Notes: generated by a model not told the origin, from the letters alone. A stretch of DNA of 64,000 bases from an uncultured Verrucomicrobiae bacterium (GCA_963837955.1 CAWIPH010000002.1:3392001-3456000), one strand, 5' to 3'; shown: positions 40,996-63,599, counted from the stretch's first letter. Made by a program: numbers and translations.

Positions 40996-41115
40996 GCGTT
41001 AGATGATAGAGACAGACTTGGTTTGACTTTCAATCCTCCGAAAGAATGATTAACCAATACGGCAAAAGAATGGGTAGGCTATTATGTATTCTTGAAGTTC
41101 GATTGACACGGTGGA

Positions 41116-42749: not shown

Positions 42750-42797
42750 AATGGTGTGGTTTTGCCAAACCTCTTTCTGCAGCCAAGCTTCCACATC

Positions 42798-43442
42798 CTA
42801 GTCGGTTCCTCCGAAGCGGAAACGCTTGCCCTGAACCCAGGATCTTTTGGGGTAATCAAGCGTAAGCCAGGTTTTAGTGAGAGAAACACCAAAGGAGCCG
42901 CAGTAGGGATTTTTCTTGAACCTCACCCTTTCGAACGGCCCCGGAAACTCGGAAGGCACCCATTCGATAATGAGGCGATATTGTTCGCCGTATTTCTCGG
43001 TCGATAGGACCTTTGCGTGAATCGATGTCACACGGCTAGCCGGTCCAGTCTTCCCGAGACAGTTCCGGAGTAGAGTCTTTTCCGCCTGATTCGATCGATT
43101 GCGTCGGCGATTTCCTTAGCTTCCCAGGTAGGATGAACGTCGGATGTTCCGGAGGCGCTAACGAAAGCTGGCTCATTTTCATCAATTGGTTCGTTCATTG
43201 GCATTTCATCATTTAAAAAGTATGTGACCATGAGCCGGCTGATTTAGTCCGTTATCGAGGATAGAAAAGTACTCATGTTGGTGGTCTTTTTTTAGAACTA
43301 CGACTCGACTGCTTCGCGTTGGGGACGTGGTGCAGTGGTATAAAACACGGAGCGGCGCATTTCCTATCCACCTGTCAGCGGAATAAGCGGTCAAAAGCTT
43401 CATGGACATTCGCTTTCGTGCGATTGTCTTGTCTCTAGTCAT
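42798..43442 (-). other. chain of three overlapping small hypothetical ORFs (43209-43442, 43028-43231, 42798-43031)
   Basis: Consecutive ATG-started minus-strand ORFs with overlapping stop/start regions, between a regulon element (43512-43577) and the CBS gene. No recognisable motifs. Confidence 0.35.
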
Positions 43443-43511
43443 TGAGCGTTTCTTTCATCCCGGTTTAGTTCAGATTCGCCATAGTCGGAGACTCCACCAT
43501 CTGGCATTATC

Positions 43512-43577
43512 ATTCTCGCCCGGATCGTTGAGCCTCTCCCATACCTTTCTCGAAGTATTACTGTTGCTTCCGCGTAT
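43512..43577 (-). promoter_or_regulatory. regulon element copy 1
   Basis: ATAC gcggaag CAAC agtaata CTTC gagaaag GTAT GGGAGA N17 GAGAAT. Confidence 0.8.
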
Positions 43578-43619
43578 GACGACTGACAGGAAAGTGGGTA
43601 GGGAACGCTGTTGCGGATA

Positions 43620-44066
43620 CTAATTCGCCCTGGTCCAAATGTAATTTCGGCCCATTAATGCGATACCAATATACCCACGGACCTTGATCCTGTCTGGTCC
43701 CTGCAGTTCCATAAAACAGGAATAGGTTTTGCCGCTCTTCGGGTCGTAAACCGTCCCGTTCTCCCAGCGAGTGTCGCTTTTTTTTGTAAAGCCAGATATG
43801 AACACAAGCCCGATGATTGGATAGTTGCGTTTCTTTGGATCTGGATTGTAAATATCGGTCTTCTCTTTTCCCTCACTCGTCTTCGGCTCGCTCAAAGCCA
43901 CGATCCTGGCACTAAGTTTGCCTTCACTTTCGAACATCTCAAAGGTGGCGTCTTGGCCCTTCCAGAATCCAATCGGGGATGCAGGATCGGTTGCGTGAAC
44001 TGCGGTCGCTCCAAACCAGCAGGTGACCAGCACCAAGAGCGGATAGGGAAGTCGGGAGGTATTCAT
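43620..44066 (-). CDS. DUF2147 domain secreted protein
   Basis: Signal peptide, SPIGFWK, DIYNPDP, WENGTVYDPKSGKTY and VRGYIG...WTR. Confidence 0.92.
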   Translation of the reverse strand: MNTSRLPYPLLVLVTCWFGATAVHATDPASPIGFWKGQDATFEMFESEGKLSARIVALSEPKTSEGKEKTDIYNPDPKKRNYPIIGLVFISGFTKKSDTRWENGTVYDPKSGKTYSCFMELQGPDRIKVRGYIGIALMGRNYIWTRAN

Positions 44067-44196
44067 AGGTTCACGCTCCCAGTTCGGGCCGAGCAGTTCC
44101 GGATTACTCCGGCGAGTCACTGGCCCGTTGCTGGTTTCAATCTAGAGCATCCTCCCAATTTGCCGTCACGAGAGGATCGGCTAACTACCGTGACGA

Positions 44197-44262
44197 AGTC
44201 TCGTTCGGATCGATTAGTTTCTCTCATACTCTTCGCGACGCGTTACCGTTGTTTTTGAGTAT
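44197..44262 (-). promoter_or_regulatory. regulon element copy 2
   Basis: ATAC tcaaaaa CAAC ggtaacg CGTC gcgaaga GTAT GAGAGA N17 GAGACT. Confidence 0.8.
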
Positions 44263-44335
44263 GACGACTGATGTTCTTTCAACCCGCAGACTGCTCCTCG
44301 CGGCTACGAACATTTCCCTTTCATTGGTCAAGACC

Positions 44336-45178
44336 TCAACCGGCATTGTTGTGCCGCCTTCCTGATCCAACCGATGCCGTTTCGGGAATAGGTCGGATGT
44401 ATTGTTGAAACGTTAGCCAGTCAACGCGAGTCTTGTCCCATTCCTGGAGAGCGAGGCCATACGATTCAAACACCTCGCGGATCTGGGCCGAATTCAATTT
44501 CAGAATATCTTCGAGGATCGGTACCAGAACACTGAGTGCGCTATCGCTGAGCACTGTCCGTTTGGCGATGCGGCCAAGAAACTTGGCCTCGGAGACAGCG
44601 ATAGTATAGCCCTCCCGACTGTTCACATGCAGCATCACGAATAGGTCCGAACTGCCGTCGCCCATATAGATCGTATGATCTGGCGTCATCTGCAGCTTGG
44701 TTTCCAGTTCCTGCAGTACAGCAATTTTGCCATAGCCCGCGGAAACGCGTTTGACGGCAGAAATTTCGCCAGTCGAAGAATCGTATTCGAGCTGTGTGCC
44801 AAAGATGCGATCCGCTGGGACAATCCCTTCGAGAGCCGACTGAACGACATCTTGGGGGGAAGCCGAGATTACATAAAACGGAAAACTATAGCCGGCGAGA
44901 CCCTTTTCGAAGAACTCCGCCAACAGATCGACGTTATTTTTCAGACGGACATGCTTGCCAGCCTCAATCAGATGTTCTCTGCGCACGGTGCGGAATTCCG
45001 GGTCGTGCCTTAGCAGGTAGGCAAGCTCAGCGCCCTGCTGGACCAGATTGGCCTTCGCGAGTCCGGCCACCTTCTCCTGGAATGTAGAGACGCCCACAAC
45101 CTCGCTCAGCACAATCCCTGAATCGTTAAAGCTCAGCGTCTGATCAAAGTCGCTTGCCACCAGATATCGTTTCGTCAT
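44336..45178 (-). CDS. HAD superfamily hydrolase (phosphoserine phosphatase-like)
   Basis: SDFDQTLS motif I, VISASP, GK and YMGDGSSD. Confidence 0.88.
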
Positions 45179-45209
45179 CTCTGAACCGTTTATCATAACT
45201 TGTTCCGGC

Positions 45210-45276
45210 ATTCTCACCCCGGATCGATAAGCTTCTCCCATACATTGCTCGAAGAGTTACAATTGCCTTCGGGTAT
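45210..45276 (-). promoter_or_regulatory. regulon element copy 3
   Basis: ATAC ccgaagg CAAT tgtaact CTTC gagcaat GTAT GGGAGA N18 GAGAAT. Confidence 0.8.
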
Positions 45277-45394
45277 AACAAGCGAGAGAAAGGAACCAGG
45301 TGTTTTTGAGACACAGGCACTATCAAACAATATTCGTTCACGCCGGGAGCCGCTGTTTCAAAGTCTTCCTTCGTTCTTCTCGTCATGCGTCGTC

Positions 45395-45460
45395 ATACTC
45401 AAAGGCGACAGTAACGCGTCTATAAGAGTATGGGAGAACCTAATGAAGCCCAGCGAGATT
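45395..45460 (+). promoter_or_regulatory. regulon element copy 4
   Basis: ATAC tcaaagg CGAC agtaacg CGTC tataaga GTAT GGGAGA N17 GAGATT. Confidence 0.8.
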
Positions 45461-45568
45461 CCTGACGTTAGTTACATGGCTTCTTTTACGGCGACAGAAT
45501 GGCACGGCCTTTAGGGTTGAGAAGCGGCCGGTGACCTGCCGGAGCCATTAGCATAGAGACAAAGGAGC

Positions 45569-46027
45569 GTGATGCGAAAGGTTGTTACTTTAGCCATAGC
45601 GATTAATGCCGGTCTCTGCTTCGTCACGATCGCACAAGCGGATGAACTTCGATTTACTGCCTTGCCGCAGACGGTGCAAAGTACTGTACTTCGCGAGACG
45701 CGGATGCCGGATGCATCAAGTGTCACCCGAATTGTCCGGGACAGTAGCGGAATCTATGTTGTTACGGTGCGAGGCATAACGGGCGAACAGGTGGTCTACG
45801 TGAATGAGGCCGGCCTCATCGTGCAGGCACCGGCAACCATTACAACGGTTCAAAAGTCAGGCGAGACGGTTCTATCGGCGATCGAGTCCACGCTGACAGT
45901 AGTGACGTATGACCAAGTCCGACAAAACGTGTCGCGATACCAACTGCTTGAGAAAAGGGGCACGAACGAAGTGTATTGGGACAACCGGACCGGACAGCAG
46001 GTGATGGTTAAACGCGAGAACAACTAA
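45569..46027 (+). CDS. secreted protein, PepSY/BLIP-like fold suspected (paralog 1)
   Basis: Signal peptide, LPQTVQSTV and YVVTV...VYVNEAG; near-identical paralog at 52989-53447. Confidence 0.75.
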   Translation: MMRKVVTLAIAINAGLCFVTIAQADELRFTALPQTVQSTVLRETRMPDASSVTRIVRDSSGIYVVTVRGITGEQVVYVNEAGLIVQAPATITTVQKSGETVLSAIESTLTVVTYDQVRQNVSRYQLLEKRGTNEVYWDNRTGQQVMVKRENN

Positions 46028-46142
46028 GCCGTCCACGTTACGCTTCCGCCCACGCGGAGACTGTGGCTGGAGGACCCGGCGCCACCGGTTGAGATCAACC
46101 CGCTGGCCGTACATCGATGGAAACATCTTAAAGAAGGCAATT

Positions 46143-46481
46143 ATGAAGAGAACAAACGATATCCTAGAAACAGCAGACACCCTGAGCAACCACCTGATGG
46201 CTGCTGTGGAAGATAAAAAAGCGGAAGCGGATGAAATTGGTTGCGCAGCGCAAAACACGCTAAGCGACGGGCAGGGAGAGGCCGAGACCGCACAGATCGG
46301 CTCCGAATCAAAAGCAAAGACTTTGCGATCCAAGGGTGCGTATGGGCGTAGACAATCGTTATCGACAATGCTGCTGACGTTGGTGGCAGTTCTCTTGGTG
46401 GGTCTGCTCTTTTTCTTTGCGCGGGTGGTATCCTTCTTTTCAGGAAGCAGAAAATCAGGAAATCGCCAGCGGCGTCGATAG
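46143..46481 (+). CDS. hypothetical tail-anchored membrane protein
   Basis: Hydrophilic Ala/Glu-rich N-part, then a C-terminal TM helix and a basic tail. Confidence 0.55.
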   Translation: MKRTNDILETADTLSNHLMAAVEDKKAEADEIGCAAQNTLSDGQGEAETAQIGSESKAKTLRSKGAYGRRQSLSTMLLTLVAVLLVGLLFFFARVVSFFSGSRKSGNRQRRR

Positions 46482-46540
46482 CCTGATCAGGGAAGACGAA
46501 AATTGTCTCCGATCAACCCAGGCGTATACTTCCGTGCGGC

Positions 46541-46753
46541 TCATTGTATGTCCTTAGGCCTTCTCTTCAGCGACATAGTGAGAAGGATTCCAAGCGCGAA
46601 TCCGGCCGCGGAGGCGATGAAAAGCAGAACGGCGTGAGGCATGACGACTGTTGCAAATAGCAGGTGCGTTTCTACGGGCTCCCTGTTCTGGACGACGAGG
46701 ATTGCTACCAAAATGACTAAGACCGAAGTCGTGATGAGTTTAAAGTTGCGCAT
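46541..46753 (-). CDS. LapA/DUF1049-like small two-TM protein
   Basis: ILVVQNREPVETHLLF...MPHAVLLF...GFALG. Confidence 0.8.
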   Translation of the reverse strand: MRNFKLITTSVLVILVAILVVQNREPVETHLLFATVVMPHAVLLFIASAAGFALGILLTMSLKRRPKDIQ

Positions 46754-46999
46754 AAGGCTATAATTGACGATTCGAGGTTACCCCACCAAACGGAAAAAAC
46801 TGTACGCTTCTCTATTGATTCCCGTGTGGCAGATCGAACCGTCCGCTACTGACGATACTGGGCTAGCAACAAGTCGCCAGACACAAAGTTGACTTGTGGA
46901 AGCTCAAGAAACCCCGGGCGGCAGCCTGGAGGTTACCCACGGCCTTATCGATCAGTATTCAAATCTGCTAACGGCTTCCTTCCGATGCTCGACTTTGCC

Positions 47000-47065
47000 A
47001 TACGCAAAAGCGACAGCAACACTTCGGGAAGGGTATTGGAGAAGCTTACGGATCCGGGCGAGAAT
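47000..47065 (+). promoter_or_regulatory. regulon element copy 5
   Basis: ATAC gcaaaag CGAC agcaaca CTTC gggaagg GTAT TGGAGA N17 GAGAAT. Confidence 0.8.
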
Positions 47066-47137
47066 CATGGTGCCGGATAACGGATAACTCGGACAAACCC
47101 CAGGACTCACTTCAACTAATCGAAAGAATCAAAAACT

Positions 47138-47287
47138 ATGCTTTGGACAATAGCCATTGTTCTCATCGTGCTCTGGGCTTTAGGCCTATTCACTCACGTC
47201 GCAGCAGGCGGATTGATTCACTTACTCTTAGTCGTTGCCGTCATCGTGATCGTGGTCAACGTGATCCGCCGCGGTCGAATAGGGTGA
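47138..47287 (+). CDS. lmo0937/DUF5670 family small membrane protein
   Basis: Hand translation MLWTIAIVLIVLWALGLFTHVAAGGLIHLLLVVAVIVIVVNVIRRGRIG. Not in the ORF track. Confidence 0.88.
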   Translation: MLWTIAIVLIVLWALGLFTHVAAGGLIHLLLVVAVIVIVVNVIRRGRIG

Positions 47288-47483
47288 CAGATTGGAATTG
47301 CGCGCGCTTCCGGCGCTGTAAAGACTATATCCGGACCGAGATGTAGTAGATTGGATTAGGGTTGCACCCGTCGACAGCTACGATTGAAAGGCTTTTCTTT
47401 CTGAGCGATCCATGCTCTCCAACCGCCTCGCGACTTGTGAGCAACGTTTGTGTGAATTGATGACTTAGGAAAGCGGTGAGAGT

Positions 47484-47957
47484 ATGGAACCAAGCTCAGC
47501 TGAAAAGATAGTATGGCCAGCTGTCCATTTGGAAACAATTCTCGTGCCGACAGATCTGCGACCTGATTCGAGAGTCGCGCTCAGTTTTGCGCTAGCGCTT
47601 GCGCAAAAGTTCGAAGCTAATCTGGTGCTTTTGCATGTATTTGCGGAGTCCTATTCTTCCGATACAGAGATTGGTGCAGGGGCAGGTAAATTACTGGATG
47701 CAACGAGAGAAGACGCAGAGCGTGAGATTGCCCGTTTGGAAGAGCTATTGCGTGGTCAGTATTCCAAGTGCCGAACCGCCTTCAGAATTGGTAGTCCATT
47801 TGAACAGATCGTGAACGAAGCCGCAGAACTAAACGCTAGTCTGATCGTGATGGCCTCGCATTGTTACGGTTGGTTTGATCACCTAATCCACGGGAGCGAT
47901 GCCGAGCGAGTGCTTCGTCAGGCTCCCTGTCCGGTGCTGATCGCCAGGGATGCCTAG
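47484..47957 (+). CDS. universal stress protein
   Basis: ILVPTDL, LVLLHV, GSPFEQI, LIVMASH and GSDAERVLRQAPCPVL. Confidence 0.95.
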   Translation: MEPSSAEKIVWPAVHLETILVPTDLRPDSRVALSFALALAQKFEANLVLLHVFAESYSSDTEIGAGAGKLLDATREDAEREIARLEELLRGQYSKCRTAFRIGSPFEQIVNEAAELNASLIVMASHCYGWFDHLIHGSDAERVLRQAPCPVLIARDA

Positions 47958-48189
47958 TCGGAGCAGTTTTCGCTGCCAGTATCCAGCGCCGCCGATGCGC
48001 CTTCGTTACATCTGGGGTGCCCTGGCTTTGAGGATGCGCATATCCCTAACATGTGGTCCGCGACGAAGTCTCTCGCCTGCGGCGGGGCGGCGCGATGCGC
48101 AATTGGGTTTCGCCCTATCGTGATCGGTCGGGCGATCCTCCAATTTAAAACACAGATTTACTGAGCCGCGATCACTGATCATCGATTAC

Positions 48190-48771
48190 TCAGATTTTAT
48201 TCTGGATCGGCACCAACCGGTTCAACAGTTTCTTCTGAGCCAGATGTAACCGGGTTTTCACAGTGCCCACAGCAATAGATTTTTGTGCAGCGATTTCGCG
48301 CTGACTCATGCCTTTGAAAAATGTTAGCTGCACCACCTCTTGTTGCGGCTCCGGCAGCAAACGGATCATTCTGGAAAGGAGCTCGAACAAATCGAAATTG
48401 GTCGGCCTCACTCCGGGCCCTCGTATTGTATCATTAAATTCTGCCCTCATCTGCGTTTCCAATCGGTCAGTCGCGCGCCGGTAAACCAGACGGTGGCGCA
48501 AACGATCGAGCGCTCTGCGCCTCGCCAAAGTGACTAGAAATCCGTGCAATCCTTTTTCTGCAACAATTCGATCCGCACGGTTCCAGAGTTGGATAAAGAC
48601 GTCATGCAAGACATCGTCGGTCTCACCTTCTTCGTGTAGGACACTTAGAATCACTGACCGTAGCGTCGATTCGTAGCGTTGATAAATTGCTGCCATGGCA
48701 TCCGCATCTCGGCGGACGACCGCTTCCATCAACGCAACGTCTGTCGGTCTCTCTGCGTTTATTTTTTCCAT
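48190..48771 (-). CDS. ECF RNA polymerase sigma factor (SigK-like)
   Basis: Region 2 DDVLHDVFIQLW...LARRRALDRLR; region 4 LPEPQQEVV...GMSQREIA...GTVKTRL. Confidence 0.92.
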   Translation of the reverse strand: MEKINAERPTDVALMEAVVRRDADAMAAIYQRYESTLRSVILSVLHEEGETDDVLHDVFIQLWNRADRIVAEKGLHGFLVTLARRRALDRLRHRLVYRRATDRLETQMRAEFNDTIRGPGVRPTNFDLFELLSRMIRLLPEPQQEVVQLTFFKGMSQREIAAQKSIAVGTVKTRLHLAQKKLLNRLVPIQNKI

Positions 48772-49166
48772 TAAATGTTCTCCAAGTAGATTTACTTCCT
48801 AAGCCTAACCCAGGGCGGCTTTCCGAAAATCGGGTGCGTCCATGATCAAAACCGCCCAGCCTCCTTGGACTTGCGTAAACCGGTGCTCCTTCGATCCTGA
48901 TCGCTGGACATATGGAGCAAGCACGAATTGTGAAGATGAACGGAGGCTCGTTTGACGGTGAAACCAAAGAGGTTTCGATTGAACATGTGACAGAATGATT
49001 CAGTAAATATTCGGACCAAGAGGCGATCCACAGACCCAATTTGTACGGCAAGTAGCAATTCATCGAGAGTGTGTGCCGAAAAAGGCATCATAGACGGCTT
49101 GCGGAACCTTAAGTGCAAGTCGTCTCCCATTGGTTCAGAATGAAGACGCGTCCGGAGGCTTTTCGT

Positions 49167-49253
49167 TTACCTGCGTCGCGAATACCAATAACCGCCCCCA
49201 CCGCCAAATAGGACTAGCAGGACGATGATAATAACTAATGTTTCGATGCTCAT
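49167..49253 (-). CDS. DUF3309-like 28-aa membrane peptide
   Basis: Hand translation MSIETLVIIIVLLVLFGGGGGYWYSRRR, immediately downstream of regulon element copy 6. Confidence 0.8.
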   Translation of the reverse strand: MSIETLVIIIVLLVLFGGGGGYWYSRRR

Positions 49254-49261
49254 TGTTAATA

Positions 49262-49327
49262 AGTTTAGCCCTCTTTAGTCAGCTTCTCCCATACTTTTCT
49301 CCACGGATTAGCGTTGCCTTTAGGTAT
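49262..49327 (-). promoter_or_regulatory. regulon element copy 6
   Basis: ATAC ctaaagg CAAC gctaatc CGTG gagaaaa GTAT GGGAGA N17 TAAACT, then 8 nt to the ATG. Confidence 0.8.
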
Positions 49328-49614
49328 AACGAAGGATGGTCGAAGCAGAATCGCAGGCCTTCGGCGGTGCGGTCGCGGATCTCCTCACCAAGCTCACCAT
49401 ATCCGCAAGCAACTACAACGCTTCAAAAGAAGTCTTGGAGAAGTTTAAGCGTTCGTGCGAAAAGAATCCCAAGAAACGTTACTCGCGCAATTTCCTTCTC
49501 CTCTCCGAAGGGCCGATTTGTCGCCATCGCTCGGTCTAGGCTTTAGCTCGATTCTAGGGTGCAGTTTGCTGCACACGTGACTATTAAAAATCGGATCTAA
49601 CAATCTTAATTACA

Positions 49615-49842
49615 ATGAAACGCCTCTTAATTCTTAATATAGTTACTGTCGTGTTCGGCGCATTAGCTACGCTATCGTGCGAGGATACATCTGGTGGGTA
49701 CCAGCACGGTTATTACAACCGGAACTACTACGACGGGAACGCCTACAATAGCGGGGAGTACAACGGACACCCCTACAACGAAGGCCGCTACTCCCGCGGA
49801 TACATCCCGTCAGACCGCCCGTCGATCGACGTGCATCTCTAG
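49615..49842 (+). CDS. small Tyr/Gly/Asn-rich putative lipoprotein
   Basis: MKR, hydrophobic stretch and LATLSC lipobox-like site; GYY/YNG repeats. Confidence 0.65.
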   Translation: MKRLLILNIVTVVFGALATLSCEDTSGGYQHGYYNRNYYDGNAYNSGEYNGHPYNEGRYSRGYIPSDRPSIDVHL

Positions 49843-50161
49843 AGGCCTATCGGCGAGTGAGTTCCGAGCATCTGGTAGTAAAAGCTTTCTTTAGCCCGAT
49901 TCGCGGACGAGCCATAGCAATCCGTAGTTCGTTCCGGATCTTGCGCTGGGTGGACCTGCTGGCCTTATCTCTCGGCGGACTCAAGGCCGCTCGGCCTTGA
50001 CCAGCGCCAGCGCACCGGACAATTAGGTCTGATGCTGACTTTGGGCACTATAGCTACACCCTTTTTCACGCCCGAGCCCACGACCTTGATGATCTGCGTG
50101 ATGCAGCGGACGTGAAATAGTTCATATCAACTTGAATCTTAAAACGGGCGCTAAAGCCCGG

Positions 50162-50232
50162 GAAGCCATCGAATTTAATTTCGCAGATCCACTCGCCCAG
50201 AGGTAACGACTCAACTAGTTTCGTGAGGCATC
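50162..50232 (-). pseudogene. fragment of an ATP-dependent DNA ligase (LigD-like) N-terminus
   Basis: CLTKLVESLPLGEWICEIKFDGF contains the adenylation motif ExKxDG; similarity ends right after it. Confidence 0.65.
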
Positions 50233-50291
50233 TTTTTTGAACGAAAGAAAGAGCTTGAACGGATCGCAGCCCGAAAATTACGATCGCGGGT

Positions 50292-50438
50292 ATGCTTTGG
50301 ACTATTATCGTCATCTTGGTCGTATTGTGGCTTCTCGGCTTCTCGATTTTCCATGTCGCCGGGGGCTTAATCCACCTTCTTTTGGTGATCGCTGTGATTG
50401 TGCTGGTAATAAAGCTCGTGACAGGTCGAGGTCTCTAG
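50292..50438 (+). CDS. lmo0937/DUF5670 family small membrane protein (paralog 2)
   Basis: Hand translation MLWTIIVILVVLWLLGFSIFHVAGGLIHLLLVIAVIVLVIKLVTGRGL. Confidence 0.88.
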   Translation: MLWTIIVILVVLWLLGFSIFHVAGGLIHLLLVIAVIVLVIKLVTGRGL

Positions 50439-50493
50439 GCCTGGAGCCCCAGGGATCAAAAGGCACGGGATCTAGATGTACCAGTCACTATGA

Positions 50494-50661
50494 GCTTCTC
50501 GATCTCACCGAAATGTTAATGGACTGGAAAGCGGCTAGTGAGCGGCATCCAGGTGGAATGTACATTGCTCGCTCCGTGGAAATCACAGCAACCGGTTTTC
50601 GGTGGGTGAACAGCTAAGAGAGATTTTGATGAACACGGTAATGGAGATGGGCTGGAGTTGA
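50494..50661 (+). pseudogene. C-terminal fragment of a DUF5662-like protein
   Basis: LLDLTEMLMDWKAASERH...IARSVEI / frameshift / RFSVGEQLREILMNT. Confidence 0.55.
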
Positions 50662-50723
50662 TTGGTACGAAAGCAAACGGCCAAAGGCGACCGTCCAATC
50701 AGCGACCATGATCTGCGGATTTA

Positions 50724-51002
50724 TTAGCCATCGCTAAGGATGCGAACGTAAGACGCCCGCGGAATTCCTCTTGTCACATTGGCAATATCGCAGTGAAGGC
50801 GGTTGCAAATCTTGCAGAGGACCGCGAAGGTCAGGTTTCGTTCGCCCCGCTCGATTCCTCCAAGGAAACTCCTATTCAGTCCACAATCCTTGGCAAAGCC
50901 GATTTGGCTAAACCCCAGGATCTTGCGTTCGGCCTGAATCCTGCGACCCAACCTTAGGAGTTCGACGTTGTCATTTGCCATATTTGGAATCCTGCTTACC
51001 AC
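50724..51002 (-). CDS. XRE family HTH transcriptional regulator
   Basis: LGRRIQAERKILGFSQIGFAKDCGLNRSFLGGIERGERN. Confidence 0.88.
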   Translation of the reverse strand: MVSRIPNMANDNVELLRLGRRIQAERKILGFSQIGFAKDCGLNRSFLGGIERGERNLTFAVLCKICNRLHCDIANVTRGIPRASYVRILSDG

Positions 51003-51132
51003 ATAGCCTACTTAGGTCAGAAACGGTTAACCCGGCCACGAGTTTACTTTGCGGTCGCCGTCTACCCTGATTTTTGGCACAAGGGCCGACCGTCTCATAG
51101 AGCTAGATCGACCCGGTTCAGGAAGTTTCCCA

Positions 51133-51170
51133 ATACTCTTTTTGAAGCGTTCCCCATTGCTTTCCGTTAT
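51133..51170 (-). promoter_or_regulatory. regulon element copy 7 (degenerate), in the XRE/LysR divergent gap
   Basis: ATAA cggaaag CAAT ggggaacg CTTC aaaaaga GTAT TGGGAA (middle spacer is 8 nt). Confidence 0.6.
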
Positions 51171-51275
51171 GGCGAAACGTATGATCCTTAAGAGGATCTT
51201 TCTGTTGCTCGGGTGATTCAACGAATCCGGAACGAATCAATGGCCCAAACGCGGGCAGATAGACCTGAGCCGCTA

Positions 51276-52175
51276 ATGAAACTTCGCCATCTGGAATATT
51301 TTGTCGCTGCCGCTGAGGAGTTGAATTTTACCCATGCCGCCGATCGGCTGCACGTATCGCAACCCCCCTTCAGCAAACAAATCCAGGACTTGGAGGGCGA
51401 GCTAGGAGTTAACCTGTTCCAGCGAGAACGGAAAGGAGTGGCACTGACGGCAGCTGGAAAGGCGTTTTTGATTGATGCGCGAGGGATCTTGGAAGCCTGC
51501 GATCAGGCAATGAAAAAAGCCCAACGCATCAACAGAGGAGAGCTCGGAGAGTTAATTGTCGGTCATATGGCGGCGCTGACCCACGAGTTTCTAGGCCAAG
51601 CACTGGAGCTTTGGCAGAAGGTTTCGCCAGGAATCATCATCGACTGCGTAGAGATGGACCCAGAAGCGCAAGAACGCGCGTTGCTGGACGGGCGCATCGC
51701 AGTGGGCATCCTGGTGCTCAGCGATCGGCCAATCCTTGAATTGTTGAGAGTTCAGCTGCTGAAAGAGCACCCGGTCACGGTCGCGTTGCCAAAATCCCAC
51801 CCGCAAGCAGTCCGGTCGCAAATCCGTTTGCCGGTCCTCAAAGAGCAACCTTTCATTGGCTTAAATCGGATGTACCCCGCGTACGGCAATTGGCTGCAGA
51901 CCGTCTGCCAGCAATCAGGGTTCACTCCACGCATTGTAAGGGAAGCAGACGGGGCGGCAAGTGCCCTCGCTATGGTCGCGGCTGGCTTTGGCGTCGCTCT
52001 GGTCAGCCAACCGATCAAAAAGTTTCCGGCCAGACATGTTGTTTTCAGAGATTTGGTGGCACCGCAACCCGTAAGGATACCGCTCGGGGCTGTCTGGAAA
52101 AAAAACGGACTCTATTCCGGAGTCGTCTCTAAGTTCGTGGAGACCTTGACCCAAGTCTGCGCCGCGACTGTCTGA
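51276..52175 (+). CDS. LysR family transcriptional regulator (BenM/CatM/AlsR-like); alternative start at 51240
   Basis: MKLRHLEYFVAAAEELNFTHAADRLHVSQPPFSKQIQDLE, GFTPRIVREAD and VAAGFGVALV. Confidence 0.95.
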   Translation: MKLRHLEYFVAAAEELNFTHAADRLHVSQPPFSKQIQDLEGELGVNLFQRERKGVALTAAGKAFLIDARGILEACDQAMKKAQRINRGELGELIVGHMAALTHEFLGQALELWQKVSPGIIIDCVEMDPEAQERALLDGRIAVGILVLSDRPILELLRVQLLKEHPVTVALPKSHPQAVRSQIRLPVLKEQPFIGLNRMYPAYGNWLQTVCQQSGFTPRIVREADGAASALAMVAAGFGVALVSQPIKKFPARHVVFRDLVAPQPVRIPLGAVWKKNGLYSGVVSKFVETLTQVCAATV

Positions 52176-52232
52176 CTGGCGCATGTCCATTGCGGTTATG
52201 GCCGCTTGAAACTTCAAATCCCACCGAGAGCA

Positions 52233-52475
52233 TTACTGGCTACTTGTCGCTCTTTGTTCTCGGGCGACATCTTCTTTTCCCTCACTTGTCTTCGGCTCGC
52301 TCAAAGCAACGATCCTGGCACTAAGTTTGCCTTCACTTTCGAACATCTCAAAGGTGGCGTCATGGCCCTTCCAGAATCCAATCGGGGATGCAGGATCGCT
52401 TGCATGAACTGCGGTCGCACCAAACCAGCAGATGACTAGCATCAGGAGCAGATAGGGAAGTCGGGAGGGATTCAT
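52233..52475 (-). pseudogene. DUF2147::CBS chimeric remnant
   Basis: MNPSRLPY...ALSEPKTSEGKE (DUF2147 N-half) joined in frame to DVAREQRATSSQ (CBS gene C-terminus DIVREQRATSSE). Confidence 0.88.
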
Positions 52476-52608
52476 AGGTTCGTTCTACGCTCTCAGCTCC
52501 GGCGAGCAGTCTCGGATTACTCCGACAAGTGACTGGTCGGTTGCTGGTCTCAATCTATAGCATCCTCCCAATTTGCTGTCACGAGAGGATCGGCTAACTA
52601 ACATGACG

Positions 52609-52674
52609 AGTCTCGTTCGGCCCGATGAGTTTCTGTCATACAGTGCTCGAAGACTTACCTTTGCCTTCCGGTAT
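52609..52674 (-). promoter_or_regulatory. regulon element copy 8 (hybrid of copies 2 and 3)
   Basis: ATAC cggaagg CAAA ggtaagt CTTC gagcact GTAT GACAGA N17 GAGACT. Confidence 0.75.
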
Positions 52675-52788
52675 AGCAAAGCCTGGCGAGAGAGGCGTTG
52701 GGGGACACGAGCACCATCAAACAATATTCGTTCACTGCGGGAACCGCTGTTTCCAAGCCTTCCTTCGTTCTTCTCGTCACCCGTCGTC

Positions 52789-52854
52789 ATACTCAAAGGC
52801 GACAGTAACGCATCGATAAGAGTATGGGAGAAGCTAATGAAGCCGGGAGAGCTT
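52789..52854 (+). promoter_or_regulatory. regulon element copy 9 (duplicate of copy 4)
   Basis: ATAC tcaaagg CGAC agtaacg CATC gataaga GTAT GGGAGA N17 GAGCTT. Confidence 0.8.
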
Positions 52855-52988
52855 CATGATCTTAGTTAAATCGATTCTCTTACGACGACAAAATGGAGCG
52901 GCCTCTAGAGTTAGTCCAAGAATCGGCCAGTGACCCGTCGGAACCATCAGAATTCAAAGACAAGAAAATTACATAAAGACAAAGGAAC

Positions 52989-53447
52989 ATGATGCGAAAG
53001 TTTACTAATTTAGCCATAGCGATGGGTGCCGGTCTCTGCTTCGGCGCGAGCGCACAAGCAGATGATCTTCGATTTACTACCTTGCCGCAGACCGTGCAAA
53101 CTACTGTAATTCGCGAGACGCGGATTCCGGATGCATCAAGTGTCACCCGCATTGTACGGGACAGCAGCGGAATCTATGTTGTTACGGTGCGAGGCACAAC
53201 AGGCGAACAGGTGGTCTATGTGAATGAGGCCGGCCTCATTGTGCAGGCACCGGTAACCGCTACCGTAGTTCAAAAGTCGGTTGAGACGGTTCAACCGGCG
53301 ATCGAGTCTTCGCAGACGGTAGTGACGTATGACCAAGTCCAACAAAACGTGTCGCGCTACCAACTGCTCGAGAAAAAGGGCACGAAAGAAGTATATCGGG
53401 ACAACAAGACCGGACAGAAAGTGATTGTTAAACGCGAAAACAACTAA
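52989..53447 (+). CDS. secreted protein, PepSY/BLIP-like fold suspected (paralog 2)
   Basis: Same length (152 aa) and highly similar to 45569-46027. Confidence 0.75.
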   Translation: MMRKFTNLAIAMGAGLCFGASAQADDLRFTTLPQTVQTTVIRETRIPDASSVTRIVRDSSGIYVVTVRGTTGEQVVYVNEAGLIVQAPVTATVVQKSVETVQPAIESSQTVVTYDQVQQNVSRYQLLEKKGTKEVYRDNKTGQKVIVKRENN

Positions 53448-53870
53448 GCCGTCCGCGTTGTTCTTCCGTGAAAGTGGAGACTGTGGCCGGAGCACCCGGC
53501 CGCAGCCAGTTGAGTAAAGATCAACCGCTGGCGGTAGACCGCCTGATCGAGGAAGGCGAAAATGTCTCCGATCAACCTAGGCGTATACTTCCATGCGACT
53601 CATTGTATGTCCTTAGGTTTTCTCTTCAGCGAGATAGTGAGAAGGACTCCAAGTGCGAATATGCACATCCTCAAAGCCATGGCACGCTGTAGCTACTCTC
53701 CTTCAGATGACTTGAAGAGGAAAGAGCAACCGACCAGAAGTTGACTAAATTGGGGAAGGCCGCAATTAACGTGGCTGCGTGAAGTAAAGTTCAAAGTCCG
53801 GTCCCGGATGGCGTTGGTGCTCGGAGGCGGATGAATCGGCGGCAGTCTCTGGATAAAGTGCTCGGCACAG

Positions 53871-55301
53871 GTGAGGCGAACGGGATTGACAAAAGCTGAA
53901 ATTCGCCAGAAAAGCTTTTCAGATTTGGCACGCAAAAAACAGTCGGGCCGTCCTAAGGTCAACCCCGCAATCAAAGTCGCGGCTGCGGAAGGCGACACAA
54001 TAATCTCTGCCGTGCCCAGAAAAGCCGGTCCTGGCAAACGCCATTCCTGGGTACGGAATGTTCTAAAAATCTTGGGTCCGGGACTGGTTACAGGTGCAGC
54101 TGACGATGATCCGAGCGGCATAGCCACTTACTCCAGCGTCGGTGCCCAATACGGGTATTCGATGCTTTGGACGATGCTTTTTATTTATCCGTTCATGGCC
54201 GCCATTCAGGAGATCAGCGGACGTCTGGGTCGCATTACCGGTCGAGGCATCGCCGGTAACATTCACCGATTCTATCCCCGATGGGCATTGTACTCGGTCG
54301 TTGCGCTGCTATTGCTGGCAAACATCATCAACATTGGAGCGGATATCGGAGCAATGGGTGCTGCGGTCAATCTGTTGATTGGTGGCCCCGCTTTGGTTTA
54401 CTGCGTGATCTTCGCTGTCATCTCAGTACTTTTGCAGGTTTTCGTCCCCTACAAAACATACTCAGTGGTCCTCAAATGGCTCACCCTGTCTCTTTTTGCT
54501 TACGTAGGTACAGTCTTTGTCACACACATATCCTGGACGGAAGCTCTGCGCGGAACCTTCCTTCCGACGCTTTTGTTTGATCGTGAGTCTATGGCAGCCC
54601 TGATCGCTGTTTTGGGAACGACGATAAGTCCATACCTATTCTTCTGGCAGTCTGGCGAAGAGGTTGAACAAATGCACGCCACTCCGAAAGAAAGACCGCT
54701 TAGAGAAGGGTCCCGTCAGGCATCGGAGAAGCCGATGCAAAGGATCGCGATCGATACCTATCTTGGGATGGCGTTTTCCAATCTGATCGCCTACTTCATC
54801 ATTCTGACTGTCGCAGTTACTCTGCACGCCCATGGGAAGACCGATATCGGCAGCGCGGCCCAGGCTGCTGAGGCTCTTCGTCCGATTGCAGGACCCTTTG
54901 CTTCGCTGCTTTTTAGCCTAGGGATTGTGGGAACAGGTTTACTAGCGTTGCCAGTTCTCGGTGGCTCGGCAGCCTACGCCGTAGGGGAAGCCTTGCGCTG
55001 GCCAGTGGGCCTGGAACGAAAGCTCAAGGGAGCGAAAGCATTTTATGGGGTACTGGCAGTTGCGACACTGATAGGGTTAGTGATTAATTTCACAAAGCTC
55101 GATCCCATCAAAGCGCTGGTTTGGGCGGCAATTATCAACGGCGTTACGGCGGCCCCAGTCATGTGTTTTATGATGCTGATGGCCAGCAATCCAAAGATCA
55201 TTGGTCAGCTGCATCTTCCCGTCTACTTAAAAGCTGTTGGATGGGCGGCGGCCGGTATCATGGCGCTGGCCGCAATCGGAATGTTTCTTACTTCGGGGTA
55301 A
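53871..55301 (+). CDS. NRAMP family divalent metal transporter
   Basis: LGPGLVTGAADDDPSGIATYS and GTTISPYLFFWQ, with multiple TM helices. Start uncertain. Confidence 0.92.
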   Translation: MRRTGLTKAEIRQKSFSDLARKKQSGRPKVNPAIKVAAAEGDTIISAVPRKAGPGKRHSWVRNVLKILGPGLVTGAADDDPSGIATYSSVGAQYGYSMLWTMLFIYPFMAAIQEISGRLGRITGRGIAGNIHRFYPRWALYSVVALLLLANIINIGADIGAMGAAVNLLIGGPALVYCVIFAVISVLLQVFVPYKTYSVVLKWLTLSLFAYVGTVFVTHISWTEALRGTFLPTLLFDRESMAALIAVLGTTISPYLFFWQSGEEVEQMHATPKERPLREGSRQASEKPMQRIAIDTYLGMAFSNLIAYFIILTVAVTLHAHGKTDIGSAAQAAEALRPIAGPFASLLFSLGIVGTGLLALPVLGGSAAYAVGEALRWPVGLERKLKGAKAFYGVLAVATLIGLVINFTKLDPIKALVWAAIINGVTAAPVMCFMMLMASNPKIIGQLHLPVYLKAVGWAAAGIMALAAIGMFLTSG

Positions 55302-55322
55302 TAACAATTTTTATCTCTTGCC

Positions 55323-57146
55323 TTGCCGAACAACCTCATATCTGAAAAGCCGGTCGAACTCGGGAAGCTAATCCAGGTAGCATACCTCGTTGTCATTCTC
55401 TCGGCCTTTGCTTGGGCGAAGGAGCTGTTGCTCCCGCTAATTCTGGCGGTTCTGATCAGCTTTTTGTTAGCGCCCGTTGTGTCTCGCCTGGAACGTTGGA
55501 GATTTCCCCGCACGGCAGCCGTCCTTAGCGTCGTTGCGGTTGTCTTCGCCCTGATCGGAGGCCTCTGCTCGACGCTTTCACTGGAGGGTTTGGATCTAGT
55601 AAACTCTCTGCCCAAATACCGCGATAATATTCATGCCAGATGGGCGGCCATTCAGCAGGGGCCGCCCGGCCCGCTCAATCTGGCACTTAGCAACGTTGAC
55701 GCGCTGATTACCGATCTAGGAAAAGTCACGGCATCTGGAGGCGTTCGACAGCCGGAGGCAACCAAGGTCCAGATTGTTAGCGGTGCTGACAGTGTACTTG
55801 CGATTGTGAAGAATAGCTTGACGCCGGTAGCGGGTCCTATCGGGGAATTTGCCCTGGTCGTTGTGCTCGTAGTTTTTATGCTTTTAGAGCGAAACCGACT
55901 CCGCGTTCGGTTTCTTCGCCTGATTGGACACTCACGCGTTGCGACGACCAATCTTGCAGTGGACGAGGTCGGATCCAAATTAAGCCGTTTTCTATTGGGG
56001 CAGTTGCTGGTGAACACCGGATATGCACTACTGCTTGGGCTCGGGCTCTTTCTAATCGGTATCCCGAACGCGCTGCTCTGGGCAGTTCTGACCCTGCTAT
56101 TGCGGTTTTTGCCATACGTCGGCCTCTGGATATCTGCTTTCTTCCCGTTGCTATTATCTATTGCCATTTCCACAAGCTGGAAGGAGCCGATACTGACTCT
56201 GGCCCTCTACGGGTCGCTGGAAGTGTTCACCAACAATGTTGTGGAACCTTTTGTCTTAGGCCGTAGCACCGGAATGTCACCGCTGGCCATAATCGTATCC
56301 GCCCTATTCTGGACGTGGCTTTGGGGTCCGATCGGTTTGTTGCTCGCGACACCGCTCACCGCTTGCCTGGTAGTGTTGGGTCGCTATTTTCCGGCATTTA
56401 ATATTTGCAGTGTTTTGTTAGCCGCAGAGCCACCCTCCTCCTCGGAAACAAGATTCATTCTTCTCCTTACGGAAAACCGCCTTCCGGAGGCCAAAGCACT
56501 CCTGCAGACATTGGGAGGGATGCAACTTTCAGTAGGAATCGCCGAAGAACTAATTTTGCCGACTCTCCGAGCAGTCGAAAACGATCTTTATCCGGGAACT
56601 AATCCAACAAAGTCTCGGATTTATGCGGAACTGCGCGAACTGATCGAGGAAATGACTGTTGAAGGCTCAACGCAATTGGAGCCACCGCCAGAACAATCAA
56701 CACCTAAACAGCCCGGAACGGCTATCGTGCCGTTCATGGGCGAAGGCGACGAAATTGTGGGGAGAGTTATCGCGCGTTTGCTGGCTGCTAAAGGGATCGG
56801 CACGGATTTGTTATCCTGGCGAACTCTTCGCGTGGAGAAAGTGGATCGTCTGAAGGAATTAAGAGCCCCGTGGATTTTGCTCTCCGCGATCGAGTCAAGA
56901 TCGGTAATCACCGTGGGTAGAATGGCGCATTCCATTAAGCTTGAGCTCCCCGATGCTCTGATTCTGGTTGGCCTTTGGAGTGTGCCAACCGAAGGCGCCG
57001 CGCGATGGGTAAGAAGAATTAAGGAGTCTTCCGGAAGCGCTCTTTACACCAATATCGATCAGGCGGTTGAAGGGATTGCTTCTCTGGTTCCGCAAGTCGG
57101 TGATGAACTCCAGGCGCGCGCGGAAAACCCGACACAAGCGAGCTGA
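55323..57146 (+). CDS. AI-2E family transporter with C-terminal cytoplasmic extension
   Basis: LLPLILAVLISFLLAP, LRFLPYVG, VEPFVLGRSTGMSP and WTWLWGPIGLLLATPLT, plus a C-terminal alpha/beta domain of about 230 aa. Confidence 0.9.
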   Translation: MPNNLISEKPVELGKLIQVAYLVVILSAFAWAKELLLPLILAVLISFLLAPVVSRLERWRFPRTAAVLSVVAVVFALIGGLCSTLSLEGLDLVNSLPKYRDNIHARWAAIQQGPPGPLNLALSNVDALITDLGKVTASGGVRQPEATKVQIVSGADSVLAIVKNSLTPVAGPIGEFALVVVLVVFMLLERNRLRVRFLRLIGHSRVATTNLAVDEVGSKLSRFLLGQLLVNTGYALLLGLGLFLIGIPNALLWAVLTLLLRFLPYVGLWISAFFPLLLSIAISTSWKEPILTLALYGSLEVFTNNVVEPFVLGRSTGMSPLAIIVSALFWTWLWGPIGLLLATPLTACLVVLGRYFPAFNICSVLLAAEPPSSSETRFILLLTENRLPEAKALLQTLGGMQLSVGIAEELILPTLRAVENDLYPGTNPTKSRIYAELRELIEEMTVEGSTQLEPPPEQSTPKQPGTAIVPFMGEGDEIVGRVIARLLAAKGIGTDLLSWRTLRVEKVDRLKELRAPWILLSAIESRSVITVGRMAHSIKLELPDALILVGLWSVPTEGAARWVRRIKESSGSALYTNIDQAVEGIASLVPQVGDELQARAENPTQAS

Positions 57147-57161
57147 CGCAGTTAAGCATCT

Positions 57162-58262
57162 ATGAACCATCCCGTCCCCCCAAATGACAGTTCGGATGGT
57201 TCAACCCCCGAGGACCTCGGAAAGTTTGTCAATCTCTGGTTCGCAGTTGCAGTGATCGGATTGTTCGTCTTTGCCTTTTTCTACACCCTGAAGGTAGCGG
57301 TTGACCTTTTTCTCCCCATCGTGCTTGCAGGTTTTCTCGGTTTCCTGCTAACGCCTATCACCAGATGGTTAAAGAAAATCGGTTTGTCAAACTTTTGGGC
57401 ACCGCTTGTCGGCACCCTCGGCTTTTTGACCATCTTGATCTGCCTTTTTGCCGCGCTGGGTGTATCATTAGCGAGGTTCGAACCTGATTTCCCCCGCTAT
57501 CTCGATCACATTCAGGAACGTTTGACGCCAATCCTTCAAGCTGTCCAGAAAAGTTCTCCATCGATCGACCGCCTAGGCGCCTGGTTGAACCCAGGCAACA
57601 TCCTTCAGGTAAGCATCCGCGGGCCAAGCTTTGTGGAGATGGCTCTGAAGAACGCGCCGAAATTTTTGGCGATTCTGGTCATTGTTCACGTACTTGCTTT
57701 CTTCCTTCTGCTGTACGGAGGCCGGCTCCTCAAAAAGCTCGTCGATATGATCCCGGGTGTGTCAGAGAAACAAAACGTCGTCGAAATCGCGTCCGAGATT
57801 GAGCAAACCGCCGCGCGTTACTTTACTTCGGTCACGCTGATCAATGCCGGTTTAGGGGTGAGTGTTTGGATCTCCGTCGGTTTACTGGGACTACCCCATC
57901 CGTTGCTTTGGGGTGTTGCTGCGTTTTTGCTCCATTACATTCCCTTCGTGGGATCAACGGGTGGCATCGTGGCAATGACGCTTGTTTCACTGATTCATTT
58001 TGATTCGGTCTGGTACGCCCTGTTGCCACCTCTGGCCTATGTCTTTTGTGCGATGATTGAAGGAAACCTAGCGACGCCGCTGTTCCTTGGGCGCTGGTTA
58101 ACCCTGAACCCGATCGCCATCCTGCTGACTTTTCTTCTTTGGTCCTACCTCTGGGGTGTGGCCGGCACTCTGCTCGCTGTTCCCCTCCTGGCGACCTTCA
58201 AAATATTCTGCGATCGAATTGAGCCACTGAGACGGGTGGGCTCATTCCTTGGGCGACCGTAA
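57162..58262 (+). CDS. AI-2E family transporter
   Basis: PLLWGVAAFLLHYIPFVG, IEGNLATP and LWGVAGTLLAVPLL. Confidence 0.92.
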   Translation: MNHPVPPNDSSDGSTPEDLGKFVNLWFAVAVIGLFVFAFFYTLKVAVDLFLPIVLAGFLGFLLTPITRWLKKIGLSNFWAPLVGTLGFLTILICLFAALGVSLARFEPDFPRYLDHIQERLTPILQAVQKSSPSIDRLGAWLNPGNILQVSIRGPSFVEMALKNAPKFLAILVIVHVLAFFLLLYGGRLLKKLVDMIPGVSEKQNVVEIASEIEQTAARYFTSVTLINAGLGVSVWISVGLLGLPHPLLWGVAAFLLHYIPFVGSTGGIVAMTLVSLIHFDSVWYALLPPLAYVFCAMIEGNLATPLFLGRWLTLNPIAILLTFLLWSYLWGVAGTLLAVPLLATFKIFCDRIEPLRRVGSFLGRP

Positions 58263-58384
58263 ATACGGTTAAAGCCGAAAGCGACTCTTTCCAGTCCCAT
58301 TTTTTCCCGCGATTGGCGCGACTGGAAAAGTGAATTTTACAGTCTGGCCAGTCCATCCTCGATTTCCGGCGGTCGACTTTTGCC

Positions 58385-58450
58385 ATACGCAAAAGCGAGA
58401 GCAACCCTTCGGGAACGGTATTGGAGAAGCTTATGGATCCGGGCAAGAAT
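58385..58450 (+). promoter_or_regulatory. regulon element copy 10
   Basis: ATAC gcaaaag CGAG agcaacc CTTC gggaacg GTAT TGGAGA N17 AAGAAT. Confidence 0.8.
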
Positions 58451-58506
58451 CATAGGCCGTTTCAGATCTGACTACGGGGCCTTTGAAGCGGCTAAGGGAC
58501 AATTGT

Positions 58507-59227
58507 ATGAAGATCGGAATTATCGGAGCGGGGAAAGTTGGCGGTGGCCTTGGAAAGTTGTGGGTTAAAGCCGGACATCAAGTCCTCTTCAGTTCGCGTC
58601 ATCCAAAGCGCCTAAGAGTGCTAGTCGAAGAAGCGGGACCAGGAGCGTATCTCGGCGACGTTGGAGATGCGGCTCTGTTTGGCGATGTAATCTTGTTCTC
58701 GCCAAATTTCTGGGGCGTGGACGATGCATTAGCAGGCCGCGGGACCAATGAAAGGGAGGACAGTGATCGATGTCACAAACCCGGTCGAGTGGAATCCGAA
58801 CGGCAGGATGGTCCGTTCTCTGCCTCAGTCAACCTCGGCGGGCGAAGAGCTGGCTAAAAAACTTCCAAATGCTCGCGTCGTTAAAGCATTCAGCACCATT
58901 CCTGCGTCTTTCATTCCGCACGCGACTTACCGAACCGGCCCGCTTCAGCGTTTGGTCGTGTTTTACTGCGGCGATTACCAAACATCAAAAGCAATTGTTC
59001 ATCAATTAGTCACGGATAGTGGATTTGTCGGTCTTGATGCTGGCCGGCTGCGAATGGCCAAAGAACTTGAGGCTCCAGGTCGAATGAATCGAGCCGGTCT
59101 CATAGGGATCGCACAAGCTAAGCGTCTACTTAATCAGCTCACTGGTTCGGTCCAAAATGAGTCGCTAGTGTCTTACGTTTCTAACGAACCAGCATTCGTT
59201 GAGGAAGCGGGCGCGTCCGCGAATTAG
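58507..59227 (+). CDS. NADPH-dependent F420 reductase-like oxidoreductase, frameshifted at about 58732
   Basis: MKIGIIGAGKVG...SSRHP in one frame; GRTVIDVTNP, VVKAFS, CGD and LDAG in the next. Confidence 0.85.
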
Positions 59228-59230
59228 AAG

Positions 59231-59390: not shown

Positions 59391-59413
59391 GTAAGAGAAC
59401 GAAATTTGCGGCG

Positions 59414-63522: not shown

Positions 63523-63599
<77 letters not shown>

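Follow-up and report, generated by a model that had tools for sequence, protein, structure and literature searches.

The locus raises a simple question: what reads the 66-bp element that recurs between positions 43,512 and 58,450 of a 64,000-nucleotide stretch of DNA from an uncultured Verrucomicrobiae bacterium (GCA_963837955.1 CAWIPH010000002.1:3392001-3456000; "the window" below means this whole stretch)? Our answer is that the element is probably an activator-dependent sigma70-type promoter, whose 37-bp four-box operator would be bound by a tetramer of the LysR-type regulator encoded at 51276-52175, and that it stands before stress- and dormancy-type genes across one family of Chthoniobacterales. 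The original prediction had already read the copies as LysR-tetramer, activator-dependent sigma70-type promoters of one regulon; this proposal now has a candidate regulator in its support, while remaining an interpretation in which the -10 box is weak (2.4 bits).

On re-examination of the window, all ten copies listed at the outset were found with the coordinates, orientations and boxes given for them, as were the 17-bp spacer (18 bp in the copy at 45240) and the -10-like hexamers. The list itself was incomplete, since an eleventh copy lies at 49399 on the plus strand, divergent from the copy at 49291. The copy at 51133, described as degenerate, does carry ATAA and one extra base between boxes 2 and 3, but this form is kept in relatives. 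The copies and the two regulatory genes among them are as follows.

43512..43577, minus strand: copy 1, with the four-box operator at 43541-43577, -35 and -10; it faces small open reading frames (ORFs), a 77-aa gene of unknown family (42798-43031) and a CBS gene (42315-42794)
44197..44262, minus strand: copy 2, upstream of a DUF2147 gene (43620-44066)
45211..45276, minus strand: copy 3, with the 18-bp spacer and a -10 ending at 45210; upstream of a HAD hydrolase gene (ends at 44336)
45395..45460, plus strand: copy 4, divergent from copy 3 and upstream of a gene for a 152-aa protein without known family (45569-46027)
47000..47065, plus strand: copy 5, upstream of an lmo0937/DUF5670 gene (47138-47287) and a universal stress protein (USP) gene (47484-47957)
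49262..49327, minus strand: copy 6, upstream of a 28-aa DUF3309-like gene (49167-49253; Pfam match on the homolog in locus L056) whose ATG lies 8 nt after the -10, with an extracytoplasmic function (ECF) sigma gene (48190-48771) about 400 bp beyond
49399..49464, plus strand: the eleventh copy, divergent from copy 6 and upstream of a 75-aa gene (49615-49842)
50724..50981, minus strand: gene for an 85-aa XRE-family helix-turn-helix (HTH) protein of the Pfam fold HTH_3, the target of copy 7
51104..51170, minus strand: copy 7, the ATAA variant with one extra base; it faces the XRE gene and is divergent from the LysR gene
51157..51185, plus strand: predicted promoter of the LysR gene, read from consensus and conservation as TTGCTT (the reverse strand of box 2 and the preceding A-tract), 17 bp, TATGAT
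51276..52175, plus strand: gene for the 299-aa LysR-type regulator, with HTH_1 and LysR_substrate domains
52609..52674, minus strand: copy 8, a hybrid joining the left half of copy 3 to the right half of copy 2; it precedes a truncated DUF2147 gene (52233-52475)
52789..52854, plus strand: copy 9, upstream of a second 152-aa gene (52989-53447)
58385..58450, plus strand: copy 10, upstream of a frameshifted F420-dependent NADP oxidoreductase gene (58507-59227)

A matrix built from the ten copies recovered the eleventh in the window and eight more elsewhere in the 5.62-Mb genome. After retraining, a 45-bp matrix gave 19 matches at or above 39.7 bits, the next match scoring 19.4 and the maximum in the reversed genome being 18.4. 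A partial 20th copy at C2:3517530 was detected by its downstream half, and a calibrated profile likewise gives 20 copies, cleanly above background. The outer boxes alone are not enriched genome-wide (35 occurrences of ATAC-N29-GTAT versus 10-34 at other spacings): what stands out is the array as a whole. Of the 20 copies, eleven fall within 15 kb of window sequence and the rest in five further regions. Under a crude gene model, 15 of the 20 are intergenic and face a gene start within 320 bp, compared with 11% of random positions in the same regions and 43% of random intergenic positions. As for the five exceptions, two face remnants or tiny ORFs and three overlap low-scoring ORF calls that we judged spurious.

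By profile search, the element is present in 30 of 37 genomes (at least 75% complete) of one Chthoniobacterales family, with 1-35 sites per genome, and under stricter filters no site was found in 130 genomes of 15 other families of the order. A strict search of viral contigs for one degenerate 37-letter pattern gave no exact match, and an Rfam scan of the window returned two tRNAs alone, with no match to the element. In the open-access literature we found no prior description of this regulon, nor of any Chthoniobacterales regulon. The regulon thus seems to be undescribed, while its mechanism is of a known kind.

The anatomy of the element was read from 189 sites in the fetched stretches, which are part of all sites; 154 of them were in register and 47 remained after removal of near-duplicates. 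Conserved positions are ATAC (1-4), AA (8-9), CAA (12-14), AAC (19-21), C-T (23, 25), A-AA (28-31), GTAT (34-37), GG (39-40), A62 (81%) and T66 (62%). The N7 spacers had been thought to vary freely, which is not the case: A8-A9, A19-A20-C21 and A28/A30-A31 are conserved at 79-98% in the 47 de-duplicated sites, pointing to A-tracts at 11-bp phase in the spacers. The core carries about 40 bits, the -35 box 4.9 and the -10 box 2.4, and the -35 matches the sigma70 consensus at 2.7 of 6 positions. The available text of PMC11495319 places the recognition site (RS) of LysR-type promoters at -80 to -50 and the activation site (AS) at -35, and together with that of PMC6628147 it gives ATAC/GTAT as the BenM/CatM half-site. 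The geometry of our element fits this layout. Its T-N11-A motif in the upstream RS site (T2-A14) is present in 79% of the 47 sites, and the position of the second site fits an overlap with the -35.

In one register A62 and T66 occur together in 57% of sites, and a shift lowers this to 13% or less, a result that is partly circular, as the search profile contained these two columns. The -10 register is supported independently because two small gene families, DUF3309 (seven sites in six genomes, plus one more) and a small protein in genome G033, have their start codon 5-8 nt after the hexamer, as in leaderless mRNA. The element shows neither a hairpin (z -1.7 to +1.6) nor covarying pairs in its alignment, and therefore reads as a double-stranded protein site. 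PhoB/OmpR direct repeats, LytTR, FNR/CRP, sigma54 and sigmaB were discarded by eye, their motifs misfitting the logo. Contigs of relatives assembled from soil RNA (two runs, 0.05 share of words) covered 30/30 and 29/30 island bins; at 49140-49739 they covered both divergent genes but no part of 49360-49499, and adapter-like loose ends occur at 49228-49235 and 49516. These contigs come from one study without a DNA control, and we do not count them as evidence for start sites or expression.

Three observations make the LysR-type protein the likely binder. A site lies within 400 bp upstream of just two of the 32 LysR genes in the genome, namely this one and its 94% paralog (39.7 and 40.9 bits; all others at most 8.3). 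Box 2 of copy 7 overlaps the predicted -35 of the LysR gene, and the pairing of TTGCTT (box 2 with its A-tract, read on the other strand) with a TATGAT-like hexamer 16-17 bp further on recurs in 20 of 26 regions upstream of LysR genes (two of them identical). Finally, among the 37 family genomes, the 22 with a LysR ortholog all have sites and the seven without sites all lack the ortholog, although this co-occurrence is overstated, the profile having been built from sites near LysR loci and related genomes not being independent. Of 14 ortholog loci fetched together with upstream DNA, 11 have a divergent site about 100 bp upstream; in one the distance is 335 bp, and two lack the site. According to PMC11495319, a site overlapping the promoter of a divergent regulator is the usual LysR autoregulatory arrangement.

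The protein falls in the neighbourhood of AlsR, HcaR, BenM and CbnR, below every named NCBIfam cut-off shown (score/cut-off: AlsR 233/430, HcaR 170/356, BenM 124/600, CatM 111/580, OxyR 80/329), and it is a member of no named LysR equivalog. Its nearest solved structures include CbnR, BenM and CatM, with about 33-35% identity to CbnR/BenM (E 1e-34 to 1e-28). The recognition helix S28-Q29-P30-P31-F32-S33-K34 is nearly invariant among 118 homologs, and cysteines C75, C124, C211 and C295 are conserved, C211 being common in other LysRs as well. The AlphaFold model is poor in the effector domain (mean pLDDT 68.6, pTM 0.46) and gives no reading of the cysteines, and a plasmid search with the protein returned relatives of at most 40.5% identity.

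Assuming that the LysR-type protein reads the element, one dimer would sit on boxes 1-2, centred near -65 given the +1 we place, and a second on boxes 3-4, near -43, touching the poor -35. On receiving a signal, the dimers would bring in RNA polymerase. At copy 7, the -35 of the regulator gene itself would be covered by this binding, leading to negative autoregulation, and the C-protein-like XRE gene would be switched on, with possible feedback. As the signal we would guess first at a small organic acid, by analogy with the closest named families; thiol oxidation comes second, on account of the conserved cysteines.

Several observations weigh against this reading, in addition to the overstated co-occurrence. 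The main doubt comes from the eight of 30 site-bearing assemblies that have no intact LysR ortholog. Three of them (G013, G042 and G045, which are 94%, 75% and 82% complete) hold 12-22 sites, and G012, G013 and G017 keep only remnants of the gene, cut after about residue 30. In genomes with at least nine sites, the XRE gene is present in 18/18 versus 15/18 for LysR. In five loci of a second genus LysR is not divergent: a site, a 156-aa gene, XRE and LysR follow one another on one strand. Residue 34 is Lys, whereas the available text of PMC6628147 attributes the specificity of BenM to Arg34. As to the DNA, neither 15-bp unit is a dyad, the -10 matches TATAAT at just 2.3 of 6 positions, and the second T-N11-A (T24-A36) occurs in just 38% of the 47 sites; activation sites of LysR-type promoters can lack this motif, as stated in the available part of PMC11495319. 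The assemblies without intact LysR are incomplete or fragmented, and G013 in particular consists of about 700 contigs, its site-bearing contigs measuring 2-49 kb, so that an intact LysR gene could be unassembled there.

The LysR remnants recur in three genera (loci L045/L100 in G013, L051/L101 in G012, L056 in G017), where residues 1 to about 30 are kept and the protein resumes at 119, 169 and 184. A further remnant in G016 (L050) keeps residues 3-58 and resumes at 209, a repeated internal deletion.

The XRE protein deserves a closer look as the binder, a candidate that the original prediction had overlooked. Its nearest solved relatives are the controller proteins C.AhdI and C.BclI, and its cysteines C33, C56, C59 and C64 are invariant in 17/17 homologs at 58-92% identity. 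The spacing C-x22-C-x2-C-x4-C is reminiscent of WhiB proteins, and related HTH families often have cysteines where C59 and C64 stand. As a cysteine control, no comparable protein was found among the other XRE proteins of the genome. An Atlas search with the protein returned generic HTH_3 clusters, the top two being commonest in Verrucomicrobiota. In the five loci of the second genus mentioned above (L079-L083), the 156-aa protein between the site and the XRE-LysR genes has no NCBIfam match.

We consider it unlikely that the C.AhdI-like XRE protein, alone or together with LysR, binds the element as two dimers on adjacent operators that activate a weak promoter, with LysR as just another member of the island. 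XRE is the commonest target (16 sites in 12 genomes) and also stands behind a site away from any LysR gene (L105, L107, L108); it is found in 24 of the 37 family genomes, all site-bearing, and its tally in site-rich genomes is the better one. C proteins do bind as two dimers beside the -35, as described in the part of PMC2504287 available to us. The C-box consensus given there, GACT-N3-AGTC-N4-GACT-N3-AGTC, nevertheless differs from our element in sequence and period, and the outer boxes are the BenM half-site. Six site-bearing genomes lack the XRE gene, and two of its three extra matches look damaged (in G013 it is fused to an apparent transposase frame, and in G042 the match covers residues 25-75 only), so its better tally is partly made of remnants. 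Because the published C-box is unlike the element, we rank XRE as a target and possible feedback regulator rather than as the binder.

It also seems improbable that another factor, an alternative sigma or an activator encoded elsewhere, reads the promoter, with LysR and XRE as passengers of a stress island. In favour of such a factor, G013 has 20-22 strong sites although its LysR is broken and its XRE fused, and the poor fit of the -35 and -10 to sigma70 as well as the presence of ECF sigma and AraC genes among the targets point in the same direction. Against it, no site occurs in those family genomes that lack both genes or in the order's other families, box 2 overlaps the predicted -35 of LysR, and the missing G013 gene may lie in an assembly gap.

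The downstream genes, whose coherence as a stress and dormancy set the original prediction had missed, are likely a set of this type by gene content. Targets in the window comprise CBS, DUF2147, HAD, lmo0937/DUF5670, USP, DUF3309, the F420-dependent oxidoreductase and small proteins of unknown function. The second of the two groES genes is a target elsewhere in the genome, together with DUF5662, a short-chain dehydrogenase and a YkuD-like gene. In relatives, the candidate ORFs lying up to 500 bp downstream of a site include CsbD, DUF892, HSP20, PRC-barrel, Band 7, DUF899, phosphoketolase, an alternate F1F0 beta subunit, a Mg-type P-ATPase, a desaturase, a glycosyltransferase, a transglutaminase-like protein, a MalK-type ATPase, ECF sigma, AraC and a ferritin-like gene. 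CsbD, DUF892, DUF3309 and lmo0937 are associated with sigmaB/sigmaEcfG general-stress regulons.

The second groES of the genome (G000:C2:4806456, L032), followed by groEL, lies behind a copy-9-type promoter, as does a groES in G003 (L068). The CIRCE pattern was matched nowhere in the genome, which is uninformative on groES control. A 75-78-aa family without Pfam or NCBIfam match stands behind the site in several genomes of at least three genera (window 42798-43031, minus strand; L028, L029, L068, L090, L091).

How did one element come to stand before so many genes? The copies had been counted as about seven independent ones. We find instead that all look homologous: the core holds about twice the information needed, near-identical copies precede unrelated genes, and some copies are recombinant. 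About 19 bits suffice to locate 20 sites in the genome, compared with the 40 bits or so of the core, although part of this excess comes from ascertainment. Copies 5 and 10 were rightly described as very similar (62/67 identical), and copy 9 matches the groES copy at 63/67. Promoters of the copy-9 type are 58-65/67 identical before groES (two genomes), USP (two genomes), a His-rich protein and 111-, 152- and 160-aa genes, the between-genus background being a mean of 39 +/- 5 of 66. Near-identical promoter pairs before unrelated genes number 83 of 11,026, which are not independent events. In the available part of PMC3575422, putative mobile promoters are defined as stretches of 50 nt or more that are at least 80% identical and precede unrelated genes of one genome; the copy-9/groES and copy-5/copy-10 pairs show this too.

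The reused promoter measures about 70-130 bp, and the copy-9-type homology often extends just 4-16 bp upstream of box 1 and 15-54 bp past the -10. Three hybrids were found. The relatives' DUF2147 promoter and copy 8 join a copy-3 left half to a copy-2 right half at about 34-45; the G004 promoter joins a copy-5 upstream region to a copy-10 gene at about 22-32; and the G003 promoter switches just before box 1. Of seven trios listed in the hybrid screen, two with the same LysR/XRE arrangement were dropped and the other five represent two events. The three junctions fall at three places, with no fixed crossover position, and the homology ends vary (about 4-78 bp upstream, 0-69 bp downstream); few as these events are, they look more like ordinary recombination between repeats than like the work of a dedicated recombinase or a miniature inverted-repeat transposable element (MITE). 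We infer that the regulon gains and shuffles genes by the copying of, and recombination between, whole promoters.

That the element is a mobile repeat or site-specific recombination site (MITE, repetitive extragenic palindrome or cassette site) with a secondary promoter look is very unlikely: its excess information, the near-identity of copies in front of unrelated genes and breaks in gene order that fall within or next to copies speak for it, but the copies have no hairpin, covariation, Rfam match or defined ends, their junctions differ in position, no fixed terminal repeat or target duplication is evident in the aligned flanks, and they are oriented to the starts of functionally coherent genes.

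Some observations on the island and its surroundings stand apart from this argument. One promoter type and a 45-55-aa ORF move as a unit of about 230-300 bp, found twice in an apparently mobile region of the genome (L031, 3168 and 15834, both plus strand) and in two relatives (L061, L064, L069). Copies 2, 4, 8 and 9, together with L089, L097 and L098, share a common leader after the -10, starting with a TTAGT-containing stretch and also present in another genus. The C-terminal peptide of the truncated DUF2147 gene (52233-52475, minus strand) resembles that of the CBS protein encoded at 42315-42794, a hint that a deletion joined the two genes within the duplicated block. At 50292-50617 the window holds a second lmo0937-like gene without a site and a 3' remnant of a DUF5662 gene; the intact form of this gene, with a site of its own, lies in the paralogous locus L029.

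Several genes at 35390-38149, 41116-41977, 58483-59227 and 61363-63200 seem frameshifted or fused (names given by eye and partly by domain search): a transaldolase-like and a glucose-6-phosphate-isomerase-like ORF are joined, an alpha/beta hydrolase and the F420 oxidoreductase are each split in two, and nitrile-hydratase-like genes seem broken as well. This suggests either assembly error or decay. A short tandem repeat array, visible as repeated peptide units in the ORF translations, lies 3' of a hydrolase gene at about 61190-61260, and tRNA genes at 63143-63216 (minus strand) and 63523-63596 (plus strand) are about 4 kb from the island end. The G+C content of the island (40001-60000) is slightly below that of the genome (0.51-0.53 versus 0.54).

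A wider picture is possible, if on balance doubtful. LysR and the controller-like XRE protein, each with four conserved cysteines, may form a two-gene redox or low-oxygen switch that runs the family's general-stress and dormancy programme, a role filled elsewhere by sigmaB, sigmaEcfG, DosR or FixK. New genes, such as the second groESL, would be recruited to it by copying the complete activator-dependent promoter and recombining the copies.

The analysis provides a candidate regulator, a precise operator and dozens of targets for stress and dormancy gene switching in uncultured soil Chthoniobacterales. It also places families of unknown function in one programme (the 75-78-aa family, the 152-aa and 156-aa proteins, DUF3309 and DUF5662), and offers a clean natural case of a regulon built by whole-promoter reuse and not by independently arising sites. 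If the element is a LysR-activated promoter, its mechanism is textbook; what is unusual is a general-stress target set with a cysteine-rich XRE partner, in a regulon that would grow by copying whole promoters.

How does this system compare with known ones? The OxyR-type tetramer site likewise has four boxes at 11-bp phase next to the -35, and stress genes as targets. Its box sequences differ from ours, and the LysR protein scores 80 bits on the OxyR model (cut-off 329) compared with 233 on AlsR (cut-off 430).

With the controller proteins C.AhdI, C.BclI and C.Esp1396I, the nearest solved relatives of XRE, the locus shares an autoregulated position downstream of a four-box operator (available part of PMC2504287). 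It differs from them in that the logo contains no C-box, no restriction-modification genes were seen beside XRE in the window, and XRE carries four invariant cysteines.

As far as the available texts go, highly similar promoters before unrelated genes are shared with putative mobile promoters (PMC3575422), and the shuffling of small genes by recombination between promoter repeats with the PeSL cassettes of T4-type phages (PMC2839356). Unlike in those cases, the unit reused here would be an activator-controlled promoter within a chromosomal island, one that can be linked to a candidate regulator, and it lacks the PeSL terminator stem-loop.

The lxa low-oxygen locus of Burkholderia cenocepacia is a clustered island in which one upstream motif is repeated at 17 places, and the available part of its description compares it with the DosR regulon (PMC3721108). 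Clustering, a repeated motif, and USP, alpha-crystallin and cation-transporting ATPase genes are shared with that source. The lxa motif given there is TGA-N6-TCA (Anr/Fnr-like), whereas ours is LysR-like, and the targets of our element additionally include CsbD, DUF892, DUF3309 and lmo0937.

A further close parallel is offered by the BenM/CatM and CbnR-type operator-promoters. The differences are several: the symmetric ATAC-N7-GTAT of BenM Site 1 is not seen here, as box 2 reads GTTG/ATTG on the other strand and only the outer boxes are perfect; no third, repressing site is evident in the element logo; Lys34 replaces Arg34 of BenM; and some 20-35 dispersed stress-type targets with a conserved XRE partner take the place of a catabolic operon. 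What is shared are the ATAC/GTAT half-sites, two dimer sites (predicted here) with the second placed at -35, and a divergent regulator whose predicted promoter is overlapped. The element likely works like a BenM/CbnR-type activator promoter.

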